Notes under the pieces: generated by a model
Told to the model about the DNA's origin: nothing
Seen by the model: only the letters and a program-made list of their open reading frames with translations
The model's database searches: none
Part shown: positions 25,008 to 39,300 of the stretch, one piece after another
Layout of the letters: every line of letters begins with the position of its first letter
Position numbering within the stretch: position 1 is the first letter of the stretch
Assembly (NCBI RefSeq): GCF_042679305.1
Contig: NZ_JBHTMP010000017.1
Location: forward strand, 13,551 to 77,550
Origin: Micromonospora sonneratiae
GTDB taxonomy: Bacteria > Actinomycetota > Actinomycetes > Mycobacteriales > Micromonosporaceae
DNA length: 64,000 bases
Direction of reading: 5' to 3'
Position numbers and translations under genes: made by a program

Positions 25008-26300
<1,293 letters not shown>

Positions 26301-26480: not shown

Positions 26481-26517
26481 CTTGGATTGATCTTTGCGGG
26501 CCGCGACAGTGGCCTCC

Positions 26518-27450
26518 ATGGATTCGATGACGCTGATTCGGAAGATTGCCGCTAGCCAGGACGGGACCGTCACGCTCACCCAGGCGAACGCGGCTGGTCT
26601 GACCGTTCACGAGGTGCACCGACTGTGCCGTTCCGGACGTTGGCGTCGCCTGGCCAGAGCCGGCTATCTCGTTGATGCCGACCGGTACGCGGAGATCCCG
26701 CGCCGGGTACGCATCCGGGCCGCCGTCGCGTCGTTCGGCCGGAGTGCGGCGGCGGTGCTGGACACTGCCGCAGAGCTGCACGGGATCGCGGGCACTCGGC
26801 GGACGGAGGCGATTCACGTCTCCCTGCCAGGTCCAGCCGTCCGGCCCAGCCGGGACACCGATCCAGCTGTGATCATCCATCAACTGACCATCGGTGCGGC
26901 GCAGCTCTGCGACGTGGCGGGTATCCCGGTCACTCGTCCGGTGCGTACGGTTGCCGACATCATCGTCCGCGCGGACCGTTTCACGGCCGTCTCGGTGCTC
27001 GACTCGGCGGTCAACCGCCAGGTTGTCACGGCAGAGGAGTTCGCGATGATTCCGGGGCTGATCCGTGGCCGACGTGGTGCCGTCGCCGCTCGCGGTTACC
27101 TTGCCGAGTGCGATGGACGCGCCCAGTCGCCGCTGGAGACAAGGTTGAGGCTGCGGTGTGTGGACGGCAGGGTGGCGCCTGACGTGTTGCAGCATGAGGT
27201 TCGCGACCGGGACGGCTGTCTGCTCGGCGTCGGTGATCTGGCCTGGCTGGCGGCACGCCTGATCGGGGAGGCGGATGGCCGGGAGGTGCACGGCACGCCT
27301 GAGGCCGTCTACCAGGACCGGTGGCGGCAGAACCGGATCGTCAATGCCGGTTGGCGGATTCTGCGGTTCACCTGGGACGACACGATGCGGCCGGACTACA
27401 TCCCGTTCGTCGTCCGGAATGCGCTCGCTGCCTCCCCTCTACCGCGTTGA
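26518..27450 (+). CDS. AbiEi-like wHTH N-terminus + DUF559 (Vsr-like endonuclease fold) C-terminus protein
   Basis: N-terminus LIRKIAASQDGTVTLTQANAAGLTVHEVHRLCRSGRWRRLARAGYL. C-terminus SPLETRLRL...GEADGREVHGTPEAVYQDRWRQNRIVNAGWRILRFTWDD. Start ATG 26518 or TTG 26494. The stop TGA lies inside palindromic copy 2. Confidence 0.8.
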   Translation: MDSMTLIRKIAASQDGTVTLTQANAAGLTVHEVHRLCRSGRWRRLARAGYLVDADRYAEIPRRVRIRAAVASFGRSAAAVLDTAAELHGIAGTRRTEAIHVSLPGPAVRPSRDTDPAVIIHQLTIGAAQLCDVAGIPVTRPVRTVADIIVRADRFTAVSVLDSAVNRQVVTAEEFAMIPGLIRGRRGAVAARGYLAECDGRAQSPLETRLRLRCVDGRVAPDVLQHEVRDRDGCLLGVGDLAWLAARLIGEADGREVHGTPEAVYQDRWRQNRIVNAGWRILRFTWDDTMRPDYIPFVVRNALAASPLPR

Positions 27451-27540: not shown

Positions 27541-28794
27541 GTGCGCGTACTTCTCATCGGAAGCGGCGGGCGGGAGCATGCGCTCGCGCTCGGCCTGGCC
27601 GCTGATCCCTCGGTCCAGCAGCTCACCGCCGCCCCGGGCAACCCCGGCATCGCCACCGTCGCCGAGTTGCGCCAGGTGGACGCCGTCGACCCGGCCAGCG
27701 TCGCCGCGCTTGCGGTGGAGACCGGCGCCGACCTCGTGGTGATCGGCCCGGAGGCCCCGCTGGTGGCCGGGGTCGCCGACGCCGTACGCGCCAAGGGCAT
27801 CGCCTGCTTCGGCCCGTCCGCCGCCGCCGCGCAACTGGAGGGCTCGAAGGCGTTCGCCAAGGAGATCATGACGGCGGCCGGGGTGCCGACCGCCCGCGCC
27901 CCCACCTGCGTGACCGCCGAAGAGGCGGAACACGCGCTGGACGACTTCGGTGCGCCGTACGTGGTCAAGGACGACGGGCTGGCCGCCGGAAAGGGCGTGG
28001 TGGTGACCGACGACCGGGCCGTCGCGCTGGCCCACGCGGCTGCCTGTGAGCGGGTGGTGGTCGAGGAGTACCTCGCCGGACCCGAGGTTTCGCTGTTCGT
28101 GGTCACCGACGGCGAGGCAGCGGTGCCGCTGCTCCCGGCACAGGACTTCAAGCGGATCGGCGACGGCGACACCGGCCCGAACACGGGTGGCATGGGGGCG
28201 TACGCGCCACTGCCCTGGGCGCCGGCCGGACTGGTCGACGAGGTCATGCGCGACGTGGTGCATCCGACGCTGGCCGAGATGCGTCGCCGGGGCACGCCCT
28301 TCGCCGGCCTGCTCTACGTCGGCTTGGCGATCACCGCCACCGGTCCGAAGGTGATCGAGTTCAACGCCCGGTTCGGCGACCCGGAGACCCAGGTCGTACT
28401 CGCCCTGCTGGAGACGCCGCTGGCCGGGCTGCTGCACGCCGCCGCGACCGGCACGCTCGGCCAGCAGCCACCGCTGCGCTGGCGGCCGGGTTCGGCGGTC
28501 ACCGTCGTGGTCGCCGCCGCGGGCTACCCGGACGCGCCGCGCACCGGTGATGTGATCACCGGTGCGGACCAGCCCGGGATCATCCACGCCGGCACCCGTC
28601 GGGACGCCGACGGTACGTTGCGCTCCTCGGGCGGCCGGGTCCTCTGTGGTACGGCCATCGGCCCGGATCTCACCGCTGCGCGGGAAGCGGCGTACGCCCT
28701 GGTCGACGGGGTTGGCCTGGCCGAGTCCCAGCATCGGCGGGACATCGCCCTGGCGGCGGCGCAGGGACGGATCCAGCCCCCGACCGCCGGCTGA
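27541..28794 (+). CDS. purD: Phosphoribosylamine--glycine ligase
   Basis: GTG start. VRVLLIGSGGREHALA, ATP-grasp core YVVKDDGLAAGKGV, GDTGPNTGGMGAY, EFNARFGDPETQ. Confidence 0.95.
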   Translation: MRVLLIGSGGREHALALGLAADPSVQQLTAAPGNPGIATVAELRQVDAVDPASVAALAVETGADLVVIGPEAPLVAGVADAVRAKGIACFGPSAAAAQLEGSKAFAKEIMTAAGVPTARAPTCVTAEEAEHALDDFGAPYVVKDDGLAAGKGVVVTDDRAVALAHAAACERVVVEEYLAGPEVSLFVVTDGEAAVPLLPAQDFKRIGDGDTGPNTGGMGAYAPLPWAPAGLVDEVMRDVVHPTLAEMRRRGTPFAGLLYVGLAITATGPKVIEFNARFGDPETQVVLALLETPLAGLLHAAATGTLGQQPPLRWRPGSAVTVVVAAAGYPDAPRTGDVITGADQPGIIHAGTRRDADGTLRSSGGRVLCGTAIGPDLTAAREAAYALVDGVGLAESQHRRDIALAAAQGRIQPPTAG

Positions 28795-28818: not shown

Positions 28819-30165
28819 TCAGGCCCGGTCGTCGGGGCGGTCCCGGCGGGCGGTGGAGATCCACTGCTCGCCGAGCGGGACCGGTCCCTCGTCCAGCGGG
28901 GCGGTGACCGGGGCCGGCGGATGGATGGGTGGCTCGTCCAGGGCCTGTAGCGACGGCAGGGGAATGGCCACCAGCGCGACGACGAGCAGCGCCACGGCCA
29001 GGACCAGGAAGGCCGGCCGTACGCCGAGCCACTCCACGAGTGGTCCGGCCAGCAGATATCCGGCTGGCCCGGCGGCGTACGCGGACGAGGTCATCACCCC
29101 TACGACGCGCCCGCGCAGGTGCTCCGGCGTACGGGTCTGCATCGCGTAGTTGGCCAGCGGGTTGATCGGGCCGTACATCAGCCCGGTCGCCGCGGCCAGG
29201 GCGATCATCGCCGGGTACGGCGGCAGCGCGGCCAGCCCGACCAGGGCGATGCCGGTGCCGACCAGGGCGATCACGAACGCGGTACGGCGACGGATCCGGT
29301 GTCCCAGGCCACCGAAGAGGAGCGCCCCGACGATTCCGCCGGCGCTCATCGCCATCACGATGGTGCCCAGTCGGGACGGCGCACCCTGGGCGACGAAGTA
29401 CGCCGGCAGGATGACGCCCTCCGACGGTAGGTAGAGCGCCACGAGTGCCATGGTCAGCAGGGCGATGGTTCGCAGCAGGCGGTCCCGCCAGACGAAGGTC
29501 AGGCCCTCGACGGTGCCGTGCCAGATGCCCGCTGGCCGGGTCTCGGGCCGTCCCGCCCCGGGCAGCCGTACTGCCGCGATCAGCAGCATGGAGAGTACGA
29601 AGCCGGCGGCGGTCACCCAGAGGGTGCGTTCCGGGCCGAAGGCGGCGATGAGTACGCCACCGACGCCGGGGCCGACGAGGAAGGCGACACCCCACATCGC
29701 CTCGTGGACGCTGTTGGCCCGGTCGATCCGCCAGCGTGCCGCCGCGGCGGCGGCCGGCAGCATGGTCTCCCGTGCGGTGAGCCCGGCCGGGTCGAAGACC
29801 GCGCCGAGCACGGCCAGTACGACGATGGCGGCGATGTTCAGCCCGAGGGTGGCGTCCAGGATCGGGATCGCCGCGACCGAGGCGGCCGACAGGGCGTCGG
29901 AGACGATCGAGGTCCGCCGCCGACCGAGCAGGTCGACCACGGTCCCGGAGAGCAGACTGGAGACCAGCAGTGGCAGGGCGGTGGCCGCCGCGACGATACC
30001 GGCGGCGGTCGGGCTGCCGGTGCGTTCCAGGACCAGCCAGGGCAGCGCGACGGTGGCCACCCCGTTTCCGGTGCCGGAGAGCAGCGTCGCCGCCTCGACC
30101 AGCAGGAGCGGGCCCAGGCGGCGGGCGGGCGGTCCAGGGGTCGCCGGCGGCCGGCGGCTGGCCAT
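28819..30165 (-). CDS. MFS transporter (EntS/efflux-like)
   Basis: 12 predicted TM helices. Start ATG 30165 (MASRRPP...). DLLGRRR loop between TM2 and TM3. The other long minus-strand ORF here (28670-30259) is out of frame. Confidence 0.85.
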   Translation of the reverse strand: MASRRPPATPGPPARRLGPLLLVEAATLLSGTGNGVATVALPWLVLERTGSPTAAGIVAAATALPLLVSSLLSGTVVDLLGRRRTSIVSDALSAASVAAIPILDATLGLNIAAIVVLAVLGAVFDPAGLTARETMLPAAAAAARWRIDRANSVHEAMWGVAFLVGPGVGGVLIAAFGPERTLWVTAAGFVLSMLLIAAVRLPGAGRPETRPAGIWHGTVEGLTFVWRDRLLRTIALLTMALVALYLPSEGVILPAYFVAQGAPSRLGTIVMAMSAGGIVGALLFGGLGHRIRRRTAFVIALVGTGIALVGLAALPPYPAMIALAAATGLMYGPINPLANYAMQTRTPEHLRGRVVGVMTSSAYAAGPAGYLLAGPLVEWLGVRPAFLVLAVALLVVALVAIPLPSLQALDEPPIHPPAPVTAPLDEGPVPLGEQWISTARRDRPDDRA

Positions 30166-30351
30166 CGGGCATCTCTCCTTCGACTTGTCGGCCACGGGGA
30201 CGGACTTCTCGTCCACCGGGACCCGGCTCAGCAGCGGACGGGCGCGATTGACAGAGCATGTCATGATCGCCGTGCCGATGCGGATGAGAAACGGTTTCAC
30301 CTGCTCCGAGTGGGTGCGCCGGGGGCGGGTAGCTGGGAGGGCGACGGTTCG

Positions 30352-30996
30352 ATGGGTGGGTTCGCCAGCGCGGTGCTCGACTTCCCGACCGTCGTCTTCA
30401 CGTTCCTGCTGGTGGTCGTCATCGGCTATTGGCTGCTCGTGCTGGTCGGCGTGGTCGACCTCGACGGTGACGCCGAAGCCGGCGGATCGGTGAACCTTCT
30501 GGCCGGGCTCGGGCTCGGCGGGCTTCCGGCCACAGTGGTCCTGTCACTTCTGATCGCGGTGGCGTGGTTCGTCAGCCTCGTCGGCACCGTGCTGCTCGAC
30601 ATACTCCTCGGGCTGACCGGACTCGTCCTGGTCGTGCTCTCGGTTTTCGTGCTGGTGGTGGCGCTGGTCTGCGCCTGGTCGGTCACCCGGTTGCTGGTGA
30701 TACCGCTGCGCCACCTGTTCCCGTCCAGCGCGGGCCCTTCCCGTACCGCCTTTGTCGGCAGGTTCTGTGTCATCCGTACCGGTCGGGTGACGGTCGACTT
30801 CGGCCAGGCCGAGGTGACGGCGGAGGACGGGTCGTCCGCTGTCGTCCAGGTGCGGCAGACCGGCGACGAATCCCTTGGTGCTGGCAGCACCGCCCTCATC
30901 TACGACTACGACGCTGACGGCGAGTTCTTCTGGGTCACGGCCATCGACGCCGAACTCCGCCCGGGCCACTCGCCCCATCGACCGAAGGAAATTTGA
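30352..30996 (+). CDS. YqiJ/NfeD-like membrane protein with C-terminal OB-like domain
   Basis: ATG 30352. Three or four TM helices, then RFCVIRTGRVTVDFGQAEVTAEDGSSAVVQVRQ (NfeD-type beta domain). The stop overlaps the flotillin ATG (TGATG). Confidence 0.7.
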   Translation: MGGFASAVLDFPTVVFTFLLVVVIGYWLLVLVGVVDLDGDAEAGGSVNLLAGLGLGGLPATVVLSLLIAVAWFVSLVGTVLLDILLGLTGLVLVVLSVFVLVVALVCAWSVTRLLVIPLRHLFPSSAGPSRTAFVGRFCVIRTGRVTVDFGQAEVTAEDGSSAVVQVRQTGDESLGAGSTALIYDYDADGEFFWVTAIDAELRPGHSPHRPKEI

Positions 30997-33005
30997 TGGA
31001 AGTAATCACCACCGGGCTCGGCGTTCTGTTGGGTGTCATCCTTCTTGTCGTCATCTGCATCATGTTCATCGTCAGCCGACTGTTCCGGAAGGTGGAGCAG
31101 GGCAAGGCCCTGATCATCTCCAAGGTCCGGCGGGTCGACGTGACGTTCACCGGCGCGGTGGTCCTGCCGGTGCTGCACAAGGCCGAGATCATGGACATCT
31201 CGGTGAAGACCATCGACATCGAGCGGACCGGCAACGAGGGCCTGATCTGCCGGGACAACATCCGGGCCGACATCCGGATCACCTTCTTCGTGCGGGTCAA
31301 CAAGACCACCGAGGACGTGGTCAAGGTGGCTCAGGCGATCGGTACGGCCCGGGCCAGTGACCGGGAGACCCTGCAGGAGCTGTTCAACGCGAAGTTCTCC
31401 GAGGCGCTGAAGACGGTCGGTAAGCAGCTGGACTTCGTCGACCTCTACACCAAGCGGGACGAGTTCCGCGACCGGATCATCCAGGTCATCGGCACCGACC
31501 TCAACGGTTACAGCCTTGAGGACGCCGCCATCGACTTCCTGGAGCAGACCCCGCTGGCCCAGCTCGACGCCGCCAACATCCTGGACGCGCAGGGCATTCG
31601 CAAGATCACTGAGCTGACCGCGATCGAGCACGTCCGTACCAACGAGTTCCAGCGCAACGAACAGAAGGAGATCACCCGCCAGAACGTCGACGCCCGGGAG
31701 GCCATCCTGGAGCTGGAACGCCGGCAGGCCGACGCCGAGATCAAGCAGCGCCGCGAGATCGAGACGATGCGGGCCAGGGAAGAAGCGGAGATTTCCCGGG
31801 TACGGGCCGAGGAGCGGCTCAAGGCCGAGTCGGCCGGTATCCGTACCGACGAGCAGCTCGGCGTCCAGCAGGAGAACCTGGCCCGGGAGATCGCCGTCGC
31901 GGAGAAGAACCGGGAACGGGTCATCGCGATCGAGACCGAGCGGATCGAGAAGGACCGGCTGCTGGAGGTCATCGCCCGGCAGCGGGAGACCGAACTCTCC
32001 ACCATCGCCAAGGACAAGGAGGTGGAGGCGGAGAAGCGGTCCATCGCCGAGGTGGTCCGGGAGCGGATCGCGGTGGAGAAGACGGTCGCCGAGCAGGAGG
32101 AGAACATCAAGCGCCTGCGGGTGGTCGAGGAGGCCGAGCGGACCCGGCAGGCGGTGGTGATCCAGGCCGAGGCGGAGGCGCAGGAGAACCTGGTCAAGGA
32201 CATCAAGGCCGCCGAGGCGGCCGAGCAGGCGGCCAAGCACCGGGCCCGGGAGCAGATGGTGCTGGCCGAGGCCCGCCAGCAGGCGGCCGAGTTGGAGACC
32301 CGGGCGAAGATCCGGCTGGCCGAGGGCCTACAGGCCGAGGCGGCTGCCGCAGGCCTGGCCGAGGTGCAGGTACGCGAGCGGGGTGCCGAGGCGATCGAGC
32401 GGGTCGGCCGGGCCGAGGCGATCGTCGAGCGGGAGAAGGCGCTGGCGGTGGCCGAGGCGGTACGGGAGAAGCTCAAGGGCGAGGCCGAGGGTCTGACCGA
32501 GAAGGCAGCCGCGATGGCGGCCCTCGACGACGCGACCCGTGACCACGAGGAGTACCGCCTGCGGTTGGAGGCGGAGAAGGAGATCCGCCTGGCCGGCATC
32601 GACGTGCAGCGGCAGGTCGCCGAGGCGCAGGCCAAGGTGGTGGCGGCCGGCCTGGAGAAGGCCAACATCGACATCGTCGGTGGCGACACGGTCTTCTTCG
32701 ACCGGCTGATGGGCTCGATCACGCTCGGCAAGAGCGTCGACGGTTTCGTCCAGCACTCCGACGTCGCCCAGACCCTGGCGCGGCCGTGGCTGGACGGATC
32801 CTCGAACTTCACCGACGACCTGGGCAAACTGCTCGGCGCGCTGAACACCGCCGACGTGCAGAACCTCACCGTCTCCGCGTTCCTGATGCAGCAGATCAAG
32901 GCCGGTGGGTCGAACGCGGACAAGCTGCGGGAGCTGCTGACCGCCGCGCAGCGCCTCGGTGTGGCGGAGGCGCCGGTGGCCGCCCTCACCGGCGCGAAGA
33001 AGTGA
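30996..33005 (+). CDS. Flotillin / SPFH (band-7) family protein
   Basis: N-terminal TM hairpin. SPFH core KALIISKVRRVDVTFTGAVVLPVLHKAEIMDISVKTIDIER...RADIRITFFVRV. About 270 aa of A/E/R-rich coiled coil. Flotillin C-terminus. Confidence 0.9.
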   Translation: MEVITTGLGVLLGVILLVVICIMFIVSRLFRKVEQGKALIISKVRRVDVTFTGAVVLPVLHKAEIMDISVKTIDIERTGNEGLICRDNIRADIRITFFVRVNKTTEDVVKVAQAIGTARASDRETLQELFNAKFSEALKTVGKQLDFVDLYTKRDEFRDRIIQVIGTDLNGYSLEDAAIDFLEQTPLAQLDAANILDAQGIRKITELTAIEHVRTNEFQRNEQKEITRQNVDAREAILELERRQADAEIKQRREIETMRAREEAEISRVRAEERLKAESAGIRTDEQLGVQQENLAREIAVAEKNRERVIAIETERIEKDRLLEVIARQRETELSTIAKDKEVEAEKRSIAEVVRERIAVEKTVAEQEENIKRLRVVEEAERTRQAVVIQAEAEAQENLVKDIKAAEAAEQAAKHRAREQMVLAEARQQAAELETRAKIRLAEGLQAEAAAAGLAEVQVRERGAEAIERVGRAEAIVEREKALAVAEAVREKLKGEAEGLTEKAAAMAALDDATRDHEEYRLRLEAEKEIRLAGIDVQRQVAEAQAKVVAAGLEKANIDIVGGDTVFFDRLMGSITLGKSVDGFVQHSDVAQTLARPWLDGSSNFTDDLGKLLGALNTADVQNLTVSAFLMQQIKAGGSNADKLRELLTAAQRLGVAEAPVAALTGAKK

Positions 33006-33012
33006 CGCCCGG

Positions 33013-36000
33013 GTGGCTGAGTTCGTGACCGGGTCCACCACCGTCGAATCGGGCGACCAGAACCGGACCGCCGACCAGGCGGGGATGGACGCCGGCACCT
33101 ACGACGTACTCCGGAACCGGCTGGCGGAACGCGCCACGGAGCTGGCCCGCCGGGCCGAGCAGCTCAACGCCCGACGGCTGGACGTCTTCGGCGGCACCGA
33201 GCTGCGGCTGCTCGGCACCGAGCGGATCCGTACGCAGCACAACTGCGTACCCCGCGACATCGTGTCGGTCGGCGGGCTGATGCTGTTCGGCTACAACGTG
33301 TTCATCGGGCTGAAGCCCGAGACGACGGTGGACGACGTCTTCTCGCTGCACCGGTTCACCCGCGAGGCGGCCCCGGACACCGGCGGCGGGGAGGTCTTCC
33401 GGTTCGCCGAGGTGGACCCGGTCGAGCTTCCCGAACTGCTACGTGACCAGCAGTTCGAGCGCGACTTCGGCGAACTCTACCGGTACTACCGGGAGACCCG
33501 GCTGCTGCAACTACGGCGGACCGACGGCCGGCTGCTGGCCATCTTCCAGACCGGTCCGCGTACCGAGGACATCCGGGTCCTGCGCTGGCGGGTCGACGCC
33601 GACGGGACGATCGGCTACCTCGACAACCGGGGCGAGCGCGACCACGTGTTCCCGCCCGCGCACGACTTCGAGTGGATCGAGACCACTCGTGAGGACCACG
33701 TGCTCGGTCGGCACCCGCACATCTCGATCCGGGGCGAGGTGTTCGTCGAGACGGTCGGCGGCAACCTCACCGTGAAGATCGAGAACAACACGGAGACCGG
33801 CGAGGGCATCTACGGCGAGCCGGTGGACGAGCCGCTACAGAGCCTGGCCGACGCCGACATCCACTACGCCGTCGTCGGTCCGCTGATCCTGCTCCGGATC
33901 CGGCCGTACAAGGAGACCGAGTGGCGGCACCTGGTCTTCAACACGACCACCAAGACGGTCGTACGTCTGGACGGCATCGGACAGGCCTGTCAGCGGTTGC
34001 CGGAGGACCACGGGATCATCTTCCCCGGGGGCTACTACCTGGCCACCGGGGTCAGCCGGACCTTCGACACGGTGGTCGACGACCTCGAGTTCGAGCGGGT
34101 CATCCGGTCCACCAACGGGGAGGACGTGCTCTACGTCTTCCATGCCCGCAAGGACGGTCGCAGCCTGCTGCTGCCGTACAACGTGATCCGTAAGGAGGTC
34201 GCCACCCCGGTTCCCTGCCACGGCTACTCGCTCTTCGACGACGGCACGCTGGTGGTGTTCCGGGCGACCTCCGAGGAGCCGACCCGGGTCCACCCGATGC
34301 AGATCTGGCAGACCCCGTACCTGTCCGACACCTACTCCGCCGCCCAGCCGGTCGGCAGTGGTCCGTTGGAGCGGGTCGGTAACGCAGACCTGGTACGCGG
34401 CATCTCGGACTGCCTGTCGGTGGCCCGGATGGTGGGCGAGATGACCCCGGCGGTCGGGGTGTTCGAGGCACTGATCGCCGGGTGCACCCGGGCCTTCGAC
34501 CACTACCACTGGCTCGGCGACCCGGAACTGGACGACCTGGGCGGGCCGCTGGCCGAGGTCCGGGCGATCGCGCAGCAGGTCCTGGACGAGTTCGAGAAGG
34601 TCCAGTCGCTCACCGCACAGGCAGCGGCGACCCTGGAGGAAACCGCCGCCCGGATCGCCTCCCTGGTCCGCCGGGTACGCGGCGAAGCGCCGCTGACCGC
34701 CGACGACTGGGTACGCCAACTCGCCGGGCTGCGTCAGGCGCAGGGCCAGTTGGTGACCCTGCGTGAGCTGCGGTACGTCGACGCGGCCCGGATCGACCGG
34801 CTGGCCGCCGAACTGGCCGAGGAGTTGACCGCCGCCGCCCAGCGTGCGGTCCGGTTCCTCCAGCAGGAGGACGCCTTCGCCGACTACCACGTCGAGGTCG
34901 ACCGGTTGGCCACGGCCGCCGGCGCGATCAGCACCGTGGCCGAGGCCGGGCCGGTCCGGGACCGGCTGGCCGAACAGGCCGAAGGGCTACAGATCGTCAC
35001 CGAGGTGGTGGGCAGCCTCGACATCGCCGACGCGACCGTACGGACCGGCATCCTGGAGCAGGTCGCCGAGGTGCTGGGCGGGGTCAACCGGGTCCGGGCC
35101 ACGTTGGACGGCCGTCGGGCGCAACTGCTGGCGGCAGAGGGGCGGGCCGGCTTCGCCGCCGAGTTCGCCCTGCTCGGGCAGGCGGTCACGGGTGCGCTGG
35201 CGGTGAGCGACACCGCCGAGAAGTGCGACGAGCAGCTGGGCCGGCTGCTGCTCCAGGTGGAGAACCTGGAGTCCCGCTTCGGCGAGTTCGACGACTTCCT
35301 CGCCGAGTTGGCGACCAGACGTACCGACATCTACGAGGCGTTCTCGTCGCGCAAGCAGGCACTGCTCGACGAGCGGGCGCGCCGGGCCGACCGGCTGGTG
35401 TCCTCGGCCGAGCGGATCCTGGTCAGCGTACGGCGTCGGGTCGGCGGGCTGCGTTCCCTCGACGAGGTGAACACCTACTTCGCCTCCGACCCGATGGTCA
35501 CCAAGCTGCGCGGGGTGGCCGACGAGCTGCGTACCCTGGGCGACCAGGTGCGGGCCGACGAGCTGGAGGGGCAGGTCAAGGCCGCTCGCCAGGAGGCCGG
35601 CCGGACGCTGCGTGACCGGATCGACCTCTACCGCGACGGTGGTGACACGATCCGGTTGGGCCGGCACGCCTTCGCCGTCAACACCCAGTCGATCGACGTG
35701 ACCCTGGTTCCGCACGACGGGCGGATGATGGTCGCCATCACCGGCACCGACTACCGCGCACCGGTACGGGACGAGGCGTTCGAGCAGACCCGGGCGTTCT
35801 GGGACCAGTTGCTGGTCTCCGAGTCCGCCGAGGTGTCCCGGGCGGAGTACCTGGCCACGTCGATCCTGGCCGAGGCGGAAGCCGGCACGTCGGGACTGAC
35901 CCTCGACCTGCTGCACGAGACGGCGGTCGGCCCGGCCGGGTTGCGCGACCTGGTCCGCCGCGCGGCGGAGGGGCGGTACGACGAGGGCTACGAGCGGGGT

Positions 36001-38151
36001 GTGCACGATCACGACGCGGCCCTGATCCTCGATGCCCTGCTGCGTCTGCACACCGCGGCCGGGCTGCTGCGTTATCCGCCCGGGGCGCGGGCCGCCGCCC
36101 AGCTCTTCTGGGCGTACGGCACCGGGGACACGGCCCGGGCCGGGTGGTCGAGACGGGCCGCTTCCCTGGGCCGGGCCCGTGCCCGGTTCGGCCGTACGGC
36201 CGCCGTCGGTGAACTGTGCGCGGAACTGGCCGACGCGGCTACCGCGTACCTGCGCGAGGTCGGCCTCGACGACCAGTTGACCGCCGTCGACCTGGCCGGG
36301 GAGTACCTGTTCGAGGAGCTGGCGCGGGAATCGTCGGCCGGCATGGCTGCCGGGACGCCACGCGGGTTCGTGACCGGGGCCGGGGCGCGGACGCTGCTCG
36401 ACCGGTTCCGTCGGACGCTGGGCGGGCCGCAGTCCAGGTCGACCAAGGAGTTCGACGACGACCTGCGGGCGCTCGGTGACGACCTTGCCGCCCGGCACCA
36501 GTTGGTCGTCGCCTGGCTGGAGGCCTACCTGGGCACCGTCCCGGCCGGCGCTGCCGCCGACCCGGGAGCCGGTGTCGCTGCTGATCCGGGAGCTGGCGTC
36601 GCCGCCGATCCGGGCGGTCTCTCCGCGTACGACCTGCCGGAGGCGGTCGCCATCGAGCTGTGCGGTGCCAGCCTGCCCCGGTACGAGTCGGCAGCCAACC
36701 TGTCGACGGAGGTGGGTGGGCTGTTGGCCACCCATCGGCGCATCGTCGGGTCGAACCTGACGCTGCGACTCGACGAGACCCTGGCCCGGACCCGACGGTT
36801 CCGCAACGAGCAGGTGCCGGCCTACCGGGCCTACCAGCAGCGCCGTAACGAACTGGTGGCCCGCGAACGGCAGCGGTTGCGGCTGGAGGAGCACCAGCCG
36901 AAGGTGATGAGCGCCTTCGTCCGTAACCGGCTGCTGGACGAGGTCTACCTGCCGTTGATCGGTGACAACCTGGCCCGGCAACTCGGCGCGGTGGGTGACG
37001 GCAAGCGGGTGGACCAGATGGGTCTGCTCCTGCTGATCTCGCCACCCGGCTACGGCAAGACGACCCTGATGGAGTACGTCGCCAGCCGGCTCGGCCTGGT
37101 GTTCGTCAAGGTCAACGGTCCGGCACTGGGCTCGGCCGTCACCTCGCTGGATCCGGCCGAGGCGCCCAACGCGACCGCCCGCCAGGAGGTCGAGAAGATC
37201 TCGTTCGCGCTGGAGGCGGGCAGCAACGTGCTGCTCTACCTGGACGACATCCAGCACACCTCGCCCGAGCTGTTGCAGAAGTTCATCTCGCTGTGCGACG
37301 GGCAGCGTCGGATGGAGGGGGTGTGGGACGGCCGCACCCGCACGTACGACCTGCGGGGCAAGCGGTTCGCCGTGTGCATGGCCGGCAACCCGTACACCGA
37401 GTCGGGGCAGCGCTTCCGGGTGCCGGACATGCTGGCCAACCGGGCCGACGTGTGGAATCTCGGTGACGTGCTCGCCGGGCGGGACGAGATCTTCGCGTTG
37501 AGCTACGTCGAGAACGCGCTCACCGCCAACCAGGTGCTGGCCCCGCTGTCCACGAGGGAACGCGGCGACGTGGAGCTGCTGGTCCGGCTGGCCCGGGGCG
37601 ACGAGACGGTACGGGCGGACCAGTTGAGTCACCCGTACTCGCCGGTCGAGTTGGAGCAGATCGTCTCCGTACTGCGCAAGCTGCTGCGGGTCCAGCAGGT
37701 GGTGCTGACCAACAACCAGGCGTACATCGCGTCGGCCGCGCAGTCGGACGCGTCCCGTACCGAACCGCCGTTCCAGTTGCAGGGCTCCTACCGGAACATG
37801 AACAAGCTGGCGGAGCGGATCGTCCCGGTGATGAACGACGAGGAACTCGAGATGGTGATCGACGACCACTACCGGGGCGAGGCGCAGACCCTGGCCTCGG
37901 GGGCCGAGGCGAACCTGCTCAAGCTGGCTGAGTTGCGTGGCCGGCTCACCGCCGAGCAGGCCCGCAGGTGGGCCGAGGTGAAGGCCGGTTACCTGCGGGC
38001 CCGGGCGCTCGGCGGGGACCGGGACGATCCGGTGAGTCGTGCGGTCGGGGCACTCGGCCTGTTGGCCGACCGGGTCGGCGACGTGGAGTCGGCGATCCAG
38101 CAGGTGGGTGCCGGGGTACGCCGGGTCGAGGTGGGCGGAGCGGCCGGGTGA
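33013..38151 (+). CDS. Giant (~1710 aa) protein: beta-rich N-terminal domain, long helical region, C-terminal AAA+ ATPase
   Basis: Starts 8 nt after the flotillin stop (GTG 33013; alternatives GTG 33025 and ATG 33085). Walker A LLLISPPGYGKTTL (~aa 1343). Walker B VLLYLDDIQH (~aa 1407). AVCMAGNP sensor-1-like. High GC3 throughout. Confidence 0.85.
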   Translation: MAEFVTGSTTVESGDQNRTADQAGMDAGTYDVLRNRLAERATELARRAEQLNARRLDVFGGTELRLLGTERIRTQHNCVPRDIVSVGGLMLFGYNVFIGLKPETTVDDVFSLHRFTREAAPDTGGGEVFRFAEVDPVELPELLRDQQFERDFGELYRYYRETRLLQLRRTDGRLLAIFQTGPRTEDIRVLRWRVDADGTIGYLDNRGERDHVFPPAHDFEWIETTREDHVLGRHPHISIRGEVFVETVGGNLTVKIENNTETGEGIYGEPVDEPLQSLADADIHYAVVGPLILLRIRPYKETEWRHLVFNTTTKTVVRLDGIGQACQRLPEDHGIIFPGGYYLATGVSRTFDTVVDDLEFERVIRSTNGEDVLYVFHARKDGRSLLLPYNVIRKEVATPVPCHGYSLFDDGTLVVFRATSEEPTRVHPMQIWQTPYLSDTYSAAQPVGSGPLERVGNADLVRGISDCLSVARMVGEMTPAVGVFEALIAGCTRAFDHYHWLGDPELDDLGGPLAEVRAIAQQVLDEFEKVQSLTAQAAATLEETAARIASLVRRVRGEAPLTADDWVRQLAGLRQAQGQLVTLRELRYVDAARIDRLAAELAEELTAAAQRAVRFLQQEDAFADYHVEVDRLATAAGAISTVAEAGPVRDRLAEQAEGLQIVTEVVGSLDIADATVRTGILEQVAEVLGGVNRVRATLDGRRAQLLAAEGRAGFAAEFALLGQAVTGALAVSDTAEKCDEQLGRLLLQVENLESRFGEFDDFLAELATRRTDIYEAFSSRKQALLDERARRADRLVSSAERILVSVRRRVGGLRSLDEVNTYFASDPMVTKLRGVADELRTLGDQVRADELEGQVKAARQEAGRTLRDRIDLYRDGGDTIRLGRHAFAVNTQSIDVTLVPHDGRMMVAITGTDYRAPVRDEAFEQTRAFWDQLLVSESAEVSRAEYLATSILAEAEAGTSGLTLDLLHETAVGPAGLRDLVRRAAEGRYDEGYERGVHDHDAALILDALLRLHTAAGLLRYPPGARAAAQLFWAYGTGDTARAGWSRRAASLGRARARFGRTAAVGELCAELADAATAYLREVGLDDQLTAVDLAGEYLFEELARESSAGMAAGTPRGFVTGAGARTLLDRFRRTLGGPQSRSTKEFDDDLRALGDDLAARHQLVVAWLEAYLGTVPAGAAADPGAGVAADPGAGVAADPGGLSAYDLPEAVAIELCGASLPRYESAANLSTEVGGLLATHRRIVGSNLTLRLDETLARTRRFRNEQVPAYRAYQQRRNELVARERQRLRLEEHQPKVMSAFVRNRLLDEVYLPLIGDNLARQLGAVGDGKRVDQMGLLLLISPPGYGKTTLMEYVASRLGLVFVKVNGPALGSAVTSLDPAEAPNATARQEVEKISFALEAGSNVLLYLDDIQHTSPELLQKFISLCDGQRRMEGVWDGRTRTYDLRGKRFAVCMAGNPYTESGQRFRVPDMLANRADVWNLGDVLAGRDEIFALSYVENALTANQVLAPLSTRERGDVELLVRLARGDETVRADQLSHPYSPVELEQIVSVLRKLLRVQQVVLTNNQAYIASAAQSDASRTEPPFQLQGSYRNMNKLAERIVPVMNDEELEMVIDDHYRGEAQTLASGAEANLLKLAELRGRLTAEQARRWAEVKAGYLRARALGGDRDDPVSRAVGALGLLADRVGDVESAIQQVGAGVRRVEVGGAAG

Positions 38152-38166
38152 ACCCGCATGCCCGGG

Positions 38167-39300
38167 TCAGGTCAGTGATCGGAGGGCCTCGGGCCGGTAC
38201 GGGATGAGTTCGTCGTTCCGGCCGGAGCGGATCTTCTCCAGCCAGGCGGGATCGGTCAGGAGGGTACGTCCGGCTGCCACGAGGTCCGCCTCCTGGCGTT
38301 CCAGCAGGTCCACCACCGCCTGTAGGCCGGTGTTGTCCGCGTGCCGGAACTCCAGGAACTCCGTGCCGTCGAGCCCCACCGAGCCGACGGCGATCGTCGG
38401 GCGGCCGGAGAGCTTTCGGGTCCACCCGGCCAGGGTCAGTGGCGAGCCGGCGAATGCGGGCAGCCAGAACCGACGCGTCGAGCAGTGGAACGCGTCGACC
38501 CCGGCGGCCACCAGTGGGGCGAGGAATGCCGCCAGATCGGCTGGGGTTTCGACCAGCCGGGCCGCGTAGTCGCTGATCTTCCATTGCGAGAAGCGCAGGA
38601 TGATCGGGTAGTCCGGTGCCACCACGCTTCGGCAGGCTGCCACGATGTCGGCGGCGAACCGGGTTCGGGCGACGAGATCCCCGCCGTAGCGGTCGGTACG
38701 CCGGTTGGTCCGTTCCCAGAAAAACTGGTCGATCAGGTAGCCGTGTCCGGCGTGCAGTTCGATGCCGTCGAAGCCGAGACGTTGGGCGTCGGCGGCGGCC
38801 CGGGCGAATGCCGCGATCACCTGCTCGATCTCTGTTTCGGTCATCGGCTCGGCAACCGGTTCACCGGTGAGGGACAGCCCCGACGGACCGATCGGCGGGA
38901 CGCCCGGGTTGGGTTGGTCGTCGACCGTGCGATCGGTCCCGACGTGCCACAGTTGCGAGGCGATGCGTCCGCCAGCAGCGTGTACCGCCGAAACCACGTC
39001 AGCCCAGCCGGACAATGGCGCGGCACCGAACAGGCGTGGCACCCGGGGACTGCTGGCCGACGCCGGATGGTCGACCACCGTCCCCTCGGTGATGATCAGC
39101 CCGATGCCGTGCGCGGCCCGGCGGGCGTAGTACGCGGCGACGTCCGGGCCGGGTACGCCGTCCGGCGAGTAGTTGCGGGTCATCGGGGCCATCACCACCC
39201 GATTCGGTACGGTGAGCCGGCCGATCGTGAACGGGCGGAACAACGCCTCGACGGCGTTCGGGACGAGAGTGTTTCCGGACACTGGGATGACTTCTTTCAC
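38167..39300 (-). CDS. Old-Yellow-Enzyme family NADH:flavin oxidoreductase
   Basis: GTG 39300 overlaps the upstream stop (GTGA). FRPFTIGRLTVPNRVVMAPMTR, IITEGT, QLWHVG, GFDGIELHAGHGYLIDQF. Confidence 0.85.
   Translation of the reverse strand: MKEVIPVSGNTLVPNAVEALFRPFTIGRLTVPNRVVMAPMTRNYSPDGVPGPDVAAYYARRAAHGIGLIITEGTVVDHPASASSPRVPRLFGAAPLSGWADVVSAVHAAGGRIASQLWHVGTDRTVDDQPNPGVPPIGPSGLSLTGEPVAEPMTETEIEQVIAAFARAAADAQRLGFDGIELHAGHGYLIDQFFWERTNRRTDRYGGDLVARTRFAADIVAACRSVVAPDYPIILRFSQWKISDYAARLVETPADLAAFLAPLVAAGVDAFHCSTRRFWLPAFAGSPLTLAGWTRKLSGRPTIAVGSVGLDGTEFLEFRHADNTGLQAVVDLLERQEADLVAAGRTLLTDPAWLEKIRSGRNDELIPYRPEALRSLT

Follow-up and report, generated by a model that had tools for sequence, protein, structure and literature searches.

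A conserved three-gene flotillin-ATPase cassette

The window analysed here is a 64,000-nucleotide stretch of Micromonospora sonneratiae (contig NZ_JBHTMP010000017.1), and the gene of interest, at 33013-38151 on the plus strand, encodes a giant ATPase whose database name is "DNA repair ATPase". We show that this protein belongs, as the cytoplasmic ATPase subunit, to a conserved membrane module of three genes, whose other members are a three-transmembrane protein of the YqiJ/YuaF type and a long flotillin of the YqiK type. The three genes and the features of the ATPase are listed in Table 1.

The two partner genes lie immediately upstream. Gene 1 was located by tblastn with the Amycolatopsis and Nocardiopsis neighbours of the ATPase (46% identity), aligns with five orthologues, and has a GGGAGG sequence preceding its ATG at 30352. 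The product of gene 2 has an N-terminal transmembrane helix (aa 1-34), an SPFH domain, a long E/A/R coiled coil, and a conserved C-terminal extension. Neither protein of the window was recognised by Pfam at E<=1 and NCBIfam returned nothing for either, so that profile alignment to the E. coli proteins with hhalign was needed: gene 2 aligned with YqiK over aa 8-419 (probability 99.8%, E 5.9e-30), and gene 1 with YqiJ (probability 90.5%, E 1.4e-6), with hydrophobic segments present. Homologues of gene 2 are named flotillin family, SPFH or YqiK in their sources and many orthologues carry PF01145; against the PDB, the flotillin profile reached only QmcA, and weakly. The C-terminal extension of about 250 residues (aa ~420-669, 32256-33002), which carries the conserved motif IDIVGGD..FFDR, has no alignment to YqiK. 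The stop of gene 1 overlaps the ATG of gene 2 by 1 nt, and 7 nt separate the stop of gene 2 (33003-33005) from the GTG of the ATPase gene. With such tight packing and a convergent next gene on the 3' side of the ATPase, the three genes look like an operon. A promoter and terminator scan of 30100-38500 gave nothing useful, including no sigma-70-like promoter.

This arrangement is not particular to Micromonospora. Scanning one genome per species for the N-terminal domain of the ATPase, we found it in at least 437 species, and 81 loci had upstream sequence. A flotillin gene lies directly upstream of the ATPase on the same strand in all 81 of these, which span Actinomycetota, Acidobacteriota, Myxococcota, Gammaproteobacteria and a 'Clostridia' metagenome-assembled genome. 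In 80 of the 81, tblastn also located the YqiJ-like gene; in the remaining one it was recognised by alignment. The intact order small transmembrane protein, flotillin, ATPase occurs in Amycolatopsis, Nocardiopsis, Simiduia, Psychrobacter and one unassigned metagenome contig, and Deinococcus megaplasmids, Proteus mirabilis and the plasmid pQBR103 have the triad as well. Across actinomycete families the ATPase is 70-80% identical and the flotillin 67-87%; to judge from the alignments, the ATPase family is under strong constraint.

The cassette has no conserved fourth gene: clustering of the flanking ORFs (open reading frames) of 80 loci gave, as its largest groups, shadow ORFs or ORFs confined to one genus, and no VWA domain occurred in the neighbour lists of the cassette loci. 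Some loci do carry further neighbours. In Simiduia, DUF2170 and PspA/IM30 are found directly upstream of the triad and a zinc-ribbon protein after it. In pQBR103, a megaplasmid of Pseudomonas fluorescens SBW25 (NC_009444.1, 85407-100900), the triad directly follows a PspA/yjf-type cluster comprising PspA/IM30, a rhomboid, DUF2491, DUF350, DUF1190 and a glutathionylspermidine-synthase-like gene.

A record from Proteus mirabilis (NZ_OL790811.1), entered in PLSDB as 'plasmid unnamed', is 4.08 Mb long and is evidently chromosomal. The whole triad is encoded on it, and a genetically tractable enterobacterium therefore has the flotillin-ATPase system.

Table 1. Genes and features of the cassette in the window, with residue numbers for the encoded proteins
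Feature	Residues (aa)	Position	Strand	Remarks
Gene 1, YqiJ/YuaF (NfeD-type)-like protein	214 in total	30352..30996	+	Multiple transmembrane segments, C-terminal beta domain
Gene 2, flotillin-family (SPFH/YqiK-like) membrane protein	669 in total	30996..33005	+	
Gene 3, giant ATPase	1,712 in total	33013..38151	+	DUF3686/DUF7902/AAA+
N-terminal long helix	27-59	33091..33189	+	Accompanies the helices after the beta domain in the model
Beta-rich, divergent propeller-like domain	65-433	33205..34311	+	Core of Pfam DUF3686
Mostly helical stalk	439-1290	34327..36882	+	Many separate helices; AlphaFold2 secondary structure, conservation and gap profile
Pfam DUF7902 (PF25472), inside the stalk	620-703	34870..35121	+	E 5.6e-30; 103.8 bits, cut-off 26
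Small five-strand beta element interrupting the stalk	879-917	35647..35763	+	AlphaFold2, fragment residues 359-397
Tandem repeat, 24 nt x 3, encoding GAGVAADP repeats	1179-1202	36544..36614	+	Tandem Repeats Finder score 93
AAA+ alpha/beta core	~1306-1482	36928..37458	+	Sole nucleotide-binding module
Walker A, SPPGYGKTT	1343-1351	37039..37065	+	PPGYGKTT begins at 37042
Walker B, LLYLDDIQH	1407-1415	37231..37257	+	
Beta-hairpin	1433-1446	37309..37350	+	AlphaFold2 strands 913-918 and 921-926, fragment numbering
End of sensor-1 strand, CMAGNP	Asn1459	37375..37392	+	G938, N939 and P940 (fragment numbering) invariant
NRADV, with candidate arginine finger	R1477	37438..37452	+	R1477 invariant in the alignment
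Helical lid and conserved C-terminal helical domain	1483-1711	37459..38145	+	AlphaFold2, conservation
Antisense ORF	960 in total	34987..37869	-	Wholly within the ATPase gene

The reading frame itself is secure. The plus-strand ORF list gives 32959..38151 (1,730 aa), within which the GTG at 33013 starts a product identical (100%) over its full length to the NCBI protein of M. sonneratiae. Its GC content at third codon positions (GC3) is 0.92, the coding signature of a 70% GC genome. A chance ORF was rejected on this value, a PF12458 match of 738 bits and thousands of homologues, and the giant gene proposed by an earlier sequence-only reading of the window is thus real. Because the antisense ORF fails the GC3-based coding filter that the ATPase gene passes, we treated it as a shadow ORF typical of GC-rich DNA.

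The window locus sits among housekeeping genes, with purA at 25011-26300 and purD at 27541-28794. An MFS transporter gene (28819-30300, minus strand) is oriented divergently from the cassette; only about 51 bp (30301-30351) lie between it and the start of the YqiJ-like gene, and if both starts are right the promoters must overlap. Between purA and purD, a 318-aa ORF (26494-27450, plus strand) has an AbiEi_4 antitoxin-type helix-turn-helix (E 1.4e-8) and a weak REase_MTES_1575 match. An AbiE-like or DUF559-like element thus appears to have been inserted between these two genes of purine biosynthesis.

Domain layout of the ATPase

We predicted the structure with AlphaFold2 in two pieces, took the secondary structure from the models, and built an alignment of 74 sequences that combines actinomycete homologues (70-80% identical) with distant sequences, for the most part gammaproteobacterial or metagenomic, which share 29-46% identity across the C-terminal two-thirds. 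The piece covering aa 521-1712 had a predicted local distance difference test (pLDDT) score of 86.4 and a predicted template modelling score of 0.70, and the other piece a pLDDT of 89. The models have five parts: an N-terminal helix, a propeller-like domain, a helical stalk, a single AAA+ module and a helical C-terminal region. No transmembrane segment was detected in the ATPase.

Pfam DUF3686 (PF12458) covers aa 43-499 along its whole length (profile positions 1-448 of 448; 738.5 bits against a cut-off of 25, E 2.9e-222). The predicted propeller-like domain at its core has about 27 strands and bears many polar residues that are invariant in the alignment (H236, K255, E257, N259, D280, E301, R305, C326, N368-D371, H427). 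A beta-rich N-terminal domain, possibly a propeller, had been guessed from composition and short peptide strings; the strings are all present where they were placed, beta-type residues are indeed enriched in aa 200-500, and the models bear out a beta-rich domain, propeller-like but divergent.

The stalk contains Pfam DUF7902. Its predicted helices are numerous, with eleven of 10-58 residues in aa 522-872 and more in aa 921-1175; strands follow at aa 1223-1252 and a long helix at aa 1253-1289. The five-strand element that interrupts it has the conserved motif GG..I.LG.H.F.VNTQ in the alignment consensus. Given these separate helices, two small beta elements and a disordered linker, the stalk is segmented and not one continuous rod or coiled coil. 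The helical rod of about 800 residues that had been proposed from composition (A, E, R and L make up 0.45-0.56 of aa 500-1300) therefore stands as mostly helical, and fails in starting near aa 440 rather than 500 and in being broken by strands and the linker. At most 2% of positions in aa 441-1040 are gapped against the distant homologues; the length of this part of the stalk is thus conserved even in the distant set. The disordered linker (aa 1179-1195, pLDDT <50 at fragment residues 659-675) holds the GAGVAADP repeats. Conservation is lowest in this part of the protein, where distant homologues have 51% gaps. The repeat has probably expanded recently by slippage, in a linker that tolerates change.

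After the AAA+ core the chain remains helical to aa 1711 in the model, as had been anticipated, over about 230 residues instead of the 150 expected; aa 1561-1640 are highly conserved and a final long helix ends the chain. In agreement with the sequence-only reading, no nuclease, helicase or peptidase model matched the ATPase in the Pfam scan, and neither did any SMC, TIR or DNA-binding model. NCBIfam gave only sub-threshold P-loop matches to RuvB, CDC48 and IteA.

An AAA+ module with deviant invariant motifs

Exactly one P-loop and one credible Walker B occur in the 1,712 residues, the AlphaFold2 model has a single alpha/beta nucleotide-binding core, and the Walker coordinates given earlier for a lone AAA+ module are correct. 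Pfam AAA and AAA_5 match aa 1339-1463 above threshold, AAA_5 over profile positions 2-126 of 139. The core is about 75% identical even against the distant, mostly gammaproteobacterial set. Its motifs deviate from the canonical ones: in Walker A a Ser replaces the first Gly of the P-loop, and Walker B has Asp-Asp instead of the usual Asp-Glu. Both SPPGYGKT and LLYLDDIQH are invariant in the 74 aligned sequences, which hints at an unusual and possibly slow hydrolysis chemistry.

In the model, a beta-hairpin is placed between the helix that follows Walker B and the sensor-1 strand, and we take it to be the pre-sensor-1 insert of the established AAA+ classification. An AAA_5-type core fold with this hairpin, a trait of MoxR ATPases, is therefore present. 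The sequence that comes next, FAVCMAGNPYTESGQRFRVPDMLANRAD, has the NP...G...P..L.(N/D)R layout typical of MoxR-type ATPases, here in the form NP...G...P.ML.NR, and R1477 is a candidate arginine finger by analogy to their DRF motif. At the classical AAA pore-loop position, which reads GPALGSAVTSLDPAEAPNATARQ, there is no aromatic pore loop.

Sequence searches against the PDB reached the P-loop stretch only (Rix7, VCP, NVL and RuvB, E ~1e-3 to 1e-4, 33-76 residues). The top Foldseek ranks were dynein, NorQ, MCM, RuvB and CbbQ, and the MoxR ATPases NorQ and CbbQ are the closest compact structural neighbours. The predicted structure thus places the AAA+ module in the dynein/midasin/MoxR structural class. 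The suggestion that it is of MoxR or dynein type rather than an SMC or repair ATPase is supported, as a statement of fold class, by the AAA_5 match and the Foldseek ranking. Two more specific identities were tried and rejected: a dynein-like intramolecular ring on the single P-loop, and a classical AAA unfoldase on the missing pore loop and lower structural scores.

Family, possible functions and known relatives

The protein is an ordinary orthologue of a catalogued and computationally described family, Pfam DUF3686 + DUF7902, and has no novelty at the sequence level. PF12458 scores above its gathering threshold, PF25472 lies in the helical region, one AAA+ module stands at the C-terminus, and the gene has the family's position in the cassette. 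The family comprises 793 clusters at 50% identity and >6,500 at 90% identity. Full-length members listed among the 50% clusters have 1,500-2,060 aa with DUF3686 at or near the N-terminus, and the same precomputed domain set is found in nearly all homologues among the matches listed. No confident placement in a characterised family with an established function emerged, the family being catalogued only as DUF3686/DUF7902.

Operons combining CesT/Tir-PspA with three further genes, including this ATPase and a three-transmembrane protein prototyped by YqiJ/YuaF, were described by comparative genomics in mSystems in 2024; abbreviated operons without PspA were more widespread, and a chaperone-like role in assembling membrane-linked complexes was proposed (PMC11237479). 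The window cassette has no PspA and matches the abbreviated operon. The supplement of that study has no ATPase entry under propeller, DUF3686 or YqiJ, and the accession cited in the article leads to another operon. Searches of the literature for DUF3686, PF12458, or 'DNA repair ATPase' with flotillin, YqiK or SPFH found no papers, and we found no experiment, solved structure or phenotype for the family in the literature.

On balance, we read the protein as probably a ring-forming ATPase that remodels flotillin/PspA membrane-stress scaffolds. Its membership of the flotillin module is held with high confidence; the specific mechanism that follows is tentative, and we put it at somewhat short of an even chance. 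The AAA+ modules would assemble into a ring; the conserved candidate Arg finger points to active sites shared between subunits. The propeller and stalk may reach the cytoplasmic face of the flotillin assembly, where the C-terminal extension of the flotillin is a candidate docking site. ATP binding and hydrolysis would then drive the conformational work of assembling, disassembling, remodelling or recycling scaffolds of flotillin and of PspA, the bacterial ESCRT-III, under envelope stress, in a role analogous to that of Vps4 on ESCRT-III or of a MoxR ATPase acting through a partner protein. According to PMC7619361, a Vps4-like ATPase for bacterial PspA appears to be missing, and the protein is a candidate for a non-homologous analogue. 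A module with Asp-Asp in Walker B and no aromatic pore loop would suit a slow, switch-like remodeller rather than a processive threading unfoldase. Several points weigh against this remodelling role. Its mechanistic steps are drawn wholly from gene linkage and fold class, and PspA adjoins the cassette in a minority of loci. E. coli and many other bacteria use YqiJK-type flotillins without the ATPase, so that flotillin function does not generally depend on it. With Asp-Asp in Walker B and Ser in the P-loop, hydrolysis could be weak or absent, and a canonical substrate-engaging pore loop was not recognised in the ATPase.

The flotillin cage might instead only concentrate clients, with the ATPase acting on client membrane proteins (maturation, cofactor insertion or extraction) and not on flotillin or PspA, like NorQ/CbbQ or like FtsH in the HflK/C cage. 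The kinship of the module with NorQ and CbbQ speaks for such a chaperone or extraction machine, and the many invariant polar residues of the propeller-like domain suggest a specific ligand or peptide site; partnerships of SPFH and AAA+ proteins such as HflK/C-FtsH are established (PMC13220708). The cassette, however, brings no VWA-domain adaptor or other conserved fourth gene, the ATPase has no protease domain, no gene nearby encodes a candidate client and the flanking genes differ entirely from genus to genus. We consider this rival unlikely, though worth keeping in mind. An anti-phage or conflict system, in which a membrane-anchored sensor pair and the giant ATPase would set off abortive infection or stop phage at the membrane, is improbable. 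In its favour, defence systems often include giant ATPases that carry repeat domains. The cassette forms a unit of its own between variable flanks, has a patchy distribution across phyla and occurs on megaplasmids (pQBR103, Deinococcus, Hymenobacter), and the window has an AbiEi-like gene 3.6 kb upstream. Yet Pfam detects no nuclease, protease, TIR or other effector domain, and PADLOC-DB 2.0, with which the ATPase and the flotillin-like protein were scanned, yielded no defence-system match, only sub-threshold IetA P-loop matches in the ATPase (E 0.0014 and 0.007, ~30 residues) and none in the flotillin-like protein. The identity of 70-80% across actinomycete families and the near indel-free stalk indicate strong purifying selection, untypical of defence genes; the window locus lies beside purA and purD, and the extra neighbours found elsewhere are PspA/yjf envelope-stress genes.

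A coat- or tether-like scaffold, with propellers and helical legs joined at an AAA+ hub to form a lattice or strut on the flotillin-marked membrane and ATP controlling assembly only, seems to us slightly less probable again. Least probable, to the point of being hardly tenable, is that the database label is correct and the protein is a DNA repair ATPase of the SMC/RecN/Rad50 kind. Its support is the inherited names 'DNA repair ATPase' and 'ATPase involved in DNA repair', and a helical region superficially like SMC coiled coils. Walker A and B, however, share one C-terminal AAA+ domain, at a distance of about 60 residues, and are not split between the ends of the protein, and we rejected an SMC/RecN-type ATPase on this motif layout. 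Nor is there an SMC, AAA_23-type, nuclease, helicase or DNA-binding Pfam match; the resemblance to RuvB covers only some 44 P-loop residues and falls far short of the threshold; every locus has membrane proteins as neighbours, and no paper was found that supports the name. The inherited label is supported by nothing in sequence or context.

A bolder form of the remodelling reading, which we regard as unlikely, is that the ATPase is the missing energy source of bacterial flotillin/PspA membrane repair: a hexameric hub with six propeller-tipped legs gripping the flotillin cage, in which ATP would open, move or recycle flotillin and ESCRT-III-like (PspA) assemblies. If this were true, the ATPase would do in bacteria what Vps4 does, without homology to it and with a design of beta-propeller and helical leg that resembles a coat. 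A conserved, linked ATPase offers an experimental handle both on the role of bacterial flotillins and on the control of PspA/ESCRT-III-like polymers, for which a Vps4-like ATPase appears to be missing (PMC7619361). The family occurs in tractable organisms, namely Proteus mirabilis, Streptomyces and Pseudomonas fluorescens with plasmid pQBR103. For this window, the value lies in a corrected label and a testable mechanism.

Among known systems, the ATPase of the operons in PMC11237479 is of the same kind as the window gene, with nothing substantive different; our analysis adds confident AlphaFold2 models, the MoxR/dynein-class assignment, the deviant invariant motifs, the absent aromatic pore loop and the synteny count. 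The comparison with MoxR ATPases is one of shared core and different surroundings. The MoxR Walker B motif is of the hhhhDExNR type. NorQ, CbbQ and RavA are stand-alone proteins of ~250-350 aa with this DExNR motif and a VWA-domain partner, whereas here the module ends a 1,712-aa chain, Walker B reads DDIQH, the partners are a flotillin and a YqiJ-like protein with no conserved VWA partner nearby, and sequence identity is 14-16%; the ATPase thus lacks the defining Walker B, size and partner of the group. Dynein heavy chain and midasin (Rea1/Mdn1) form an intramolecular ring from six concatenated AAA modules, whereas the window ATPase, with one P-loop, would need to oligomerise; their global TM-scores are very low (0.05-0.13), so that only the AAA module is comparable. 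The full-length PF00004 match and aromatic-hydrophobic-Gly pore loop 1 (between beta2 and alpha2) expected of classical-clade AAA proteins (Cdc48/Vps4/FtsH/katanin) were not found together here, and neither was the split ABC-type head with antiparallel coiled coil of SMC/RecN/Rad50.

The nearest relatives of the cassette itself are the NfeD-flotillin pairs, E. coli YqiJ-YqiK and B. subtilis YuaF-FloT, to which genes 1 and 2 are homologous and with which they share the same order. The classical pairs have no ATPase gene, and the flotillin here has 669 aa against 553 aa and carries the conserved C-terminal region described above. With Vps4/ESCRT-III and with FtsH in the HflK/C SPFH cage, the system shares a logic in which an AAA+ machine is coupled, genetically or physically, to a membrane-shaping scaffold.

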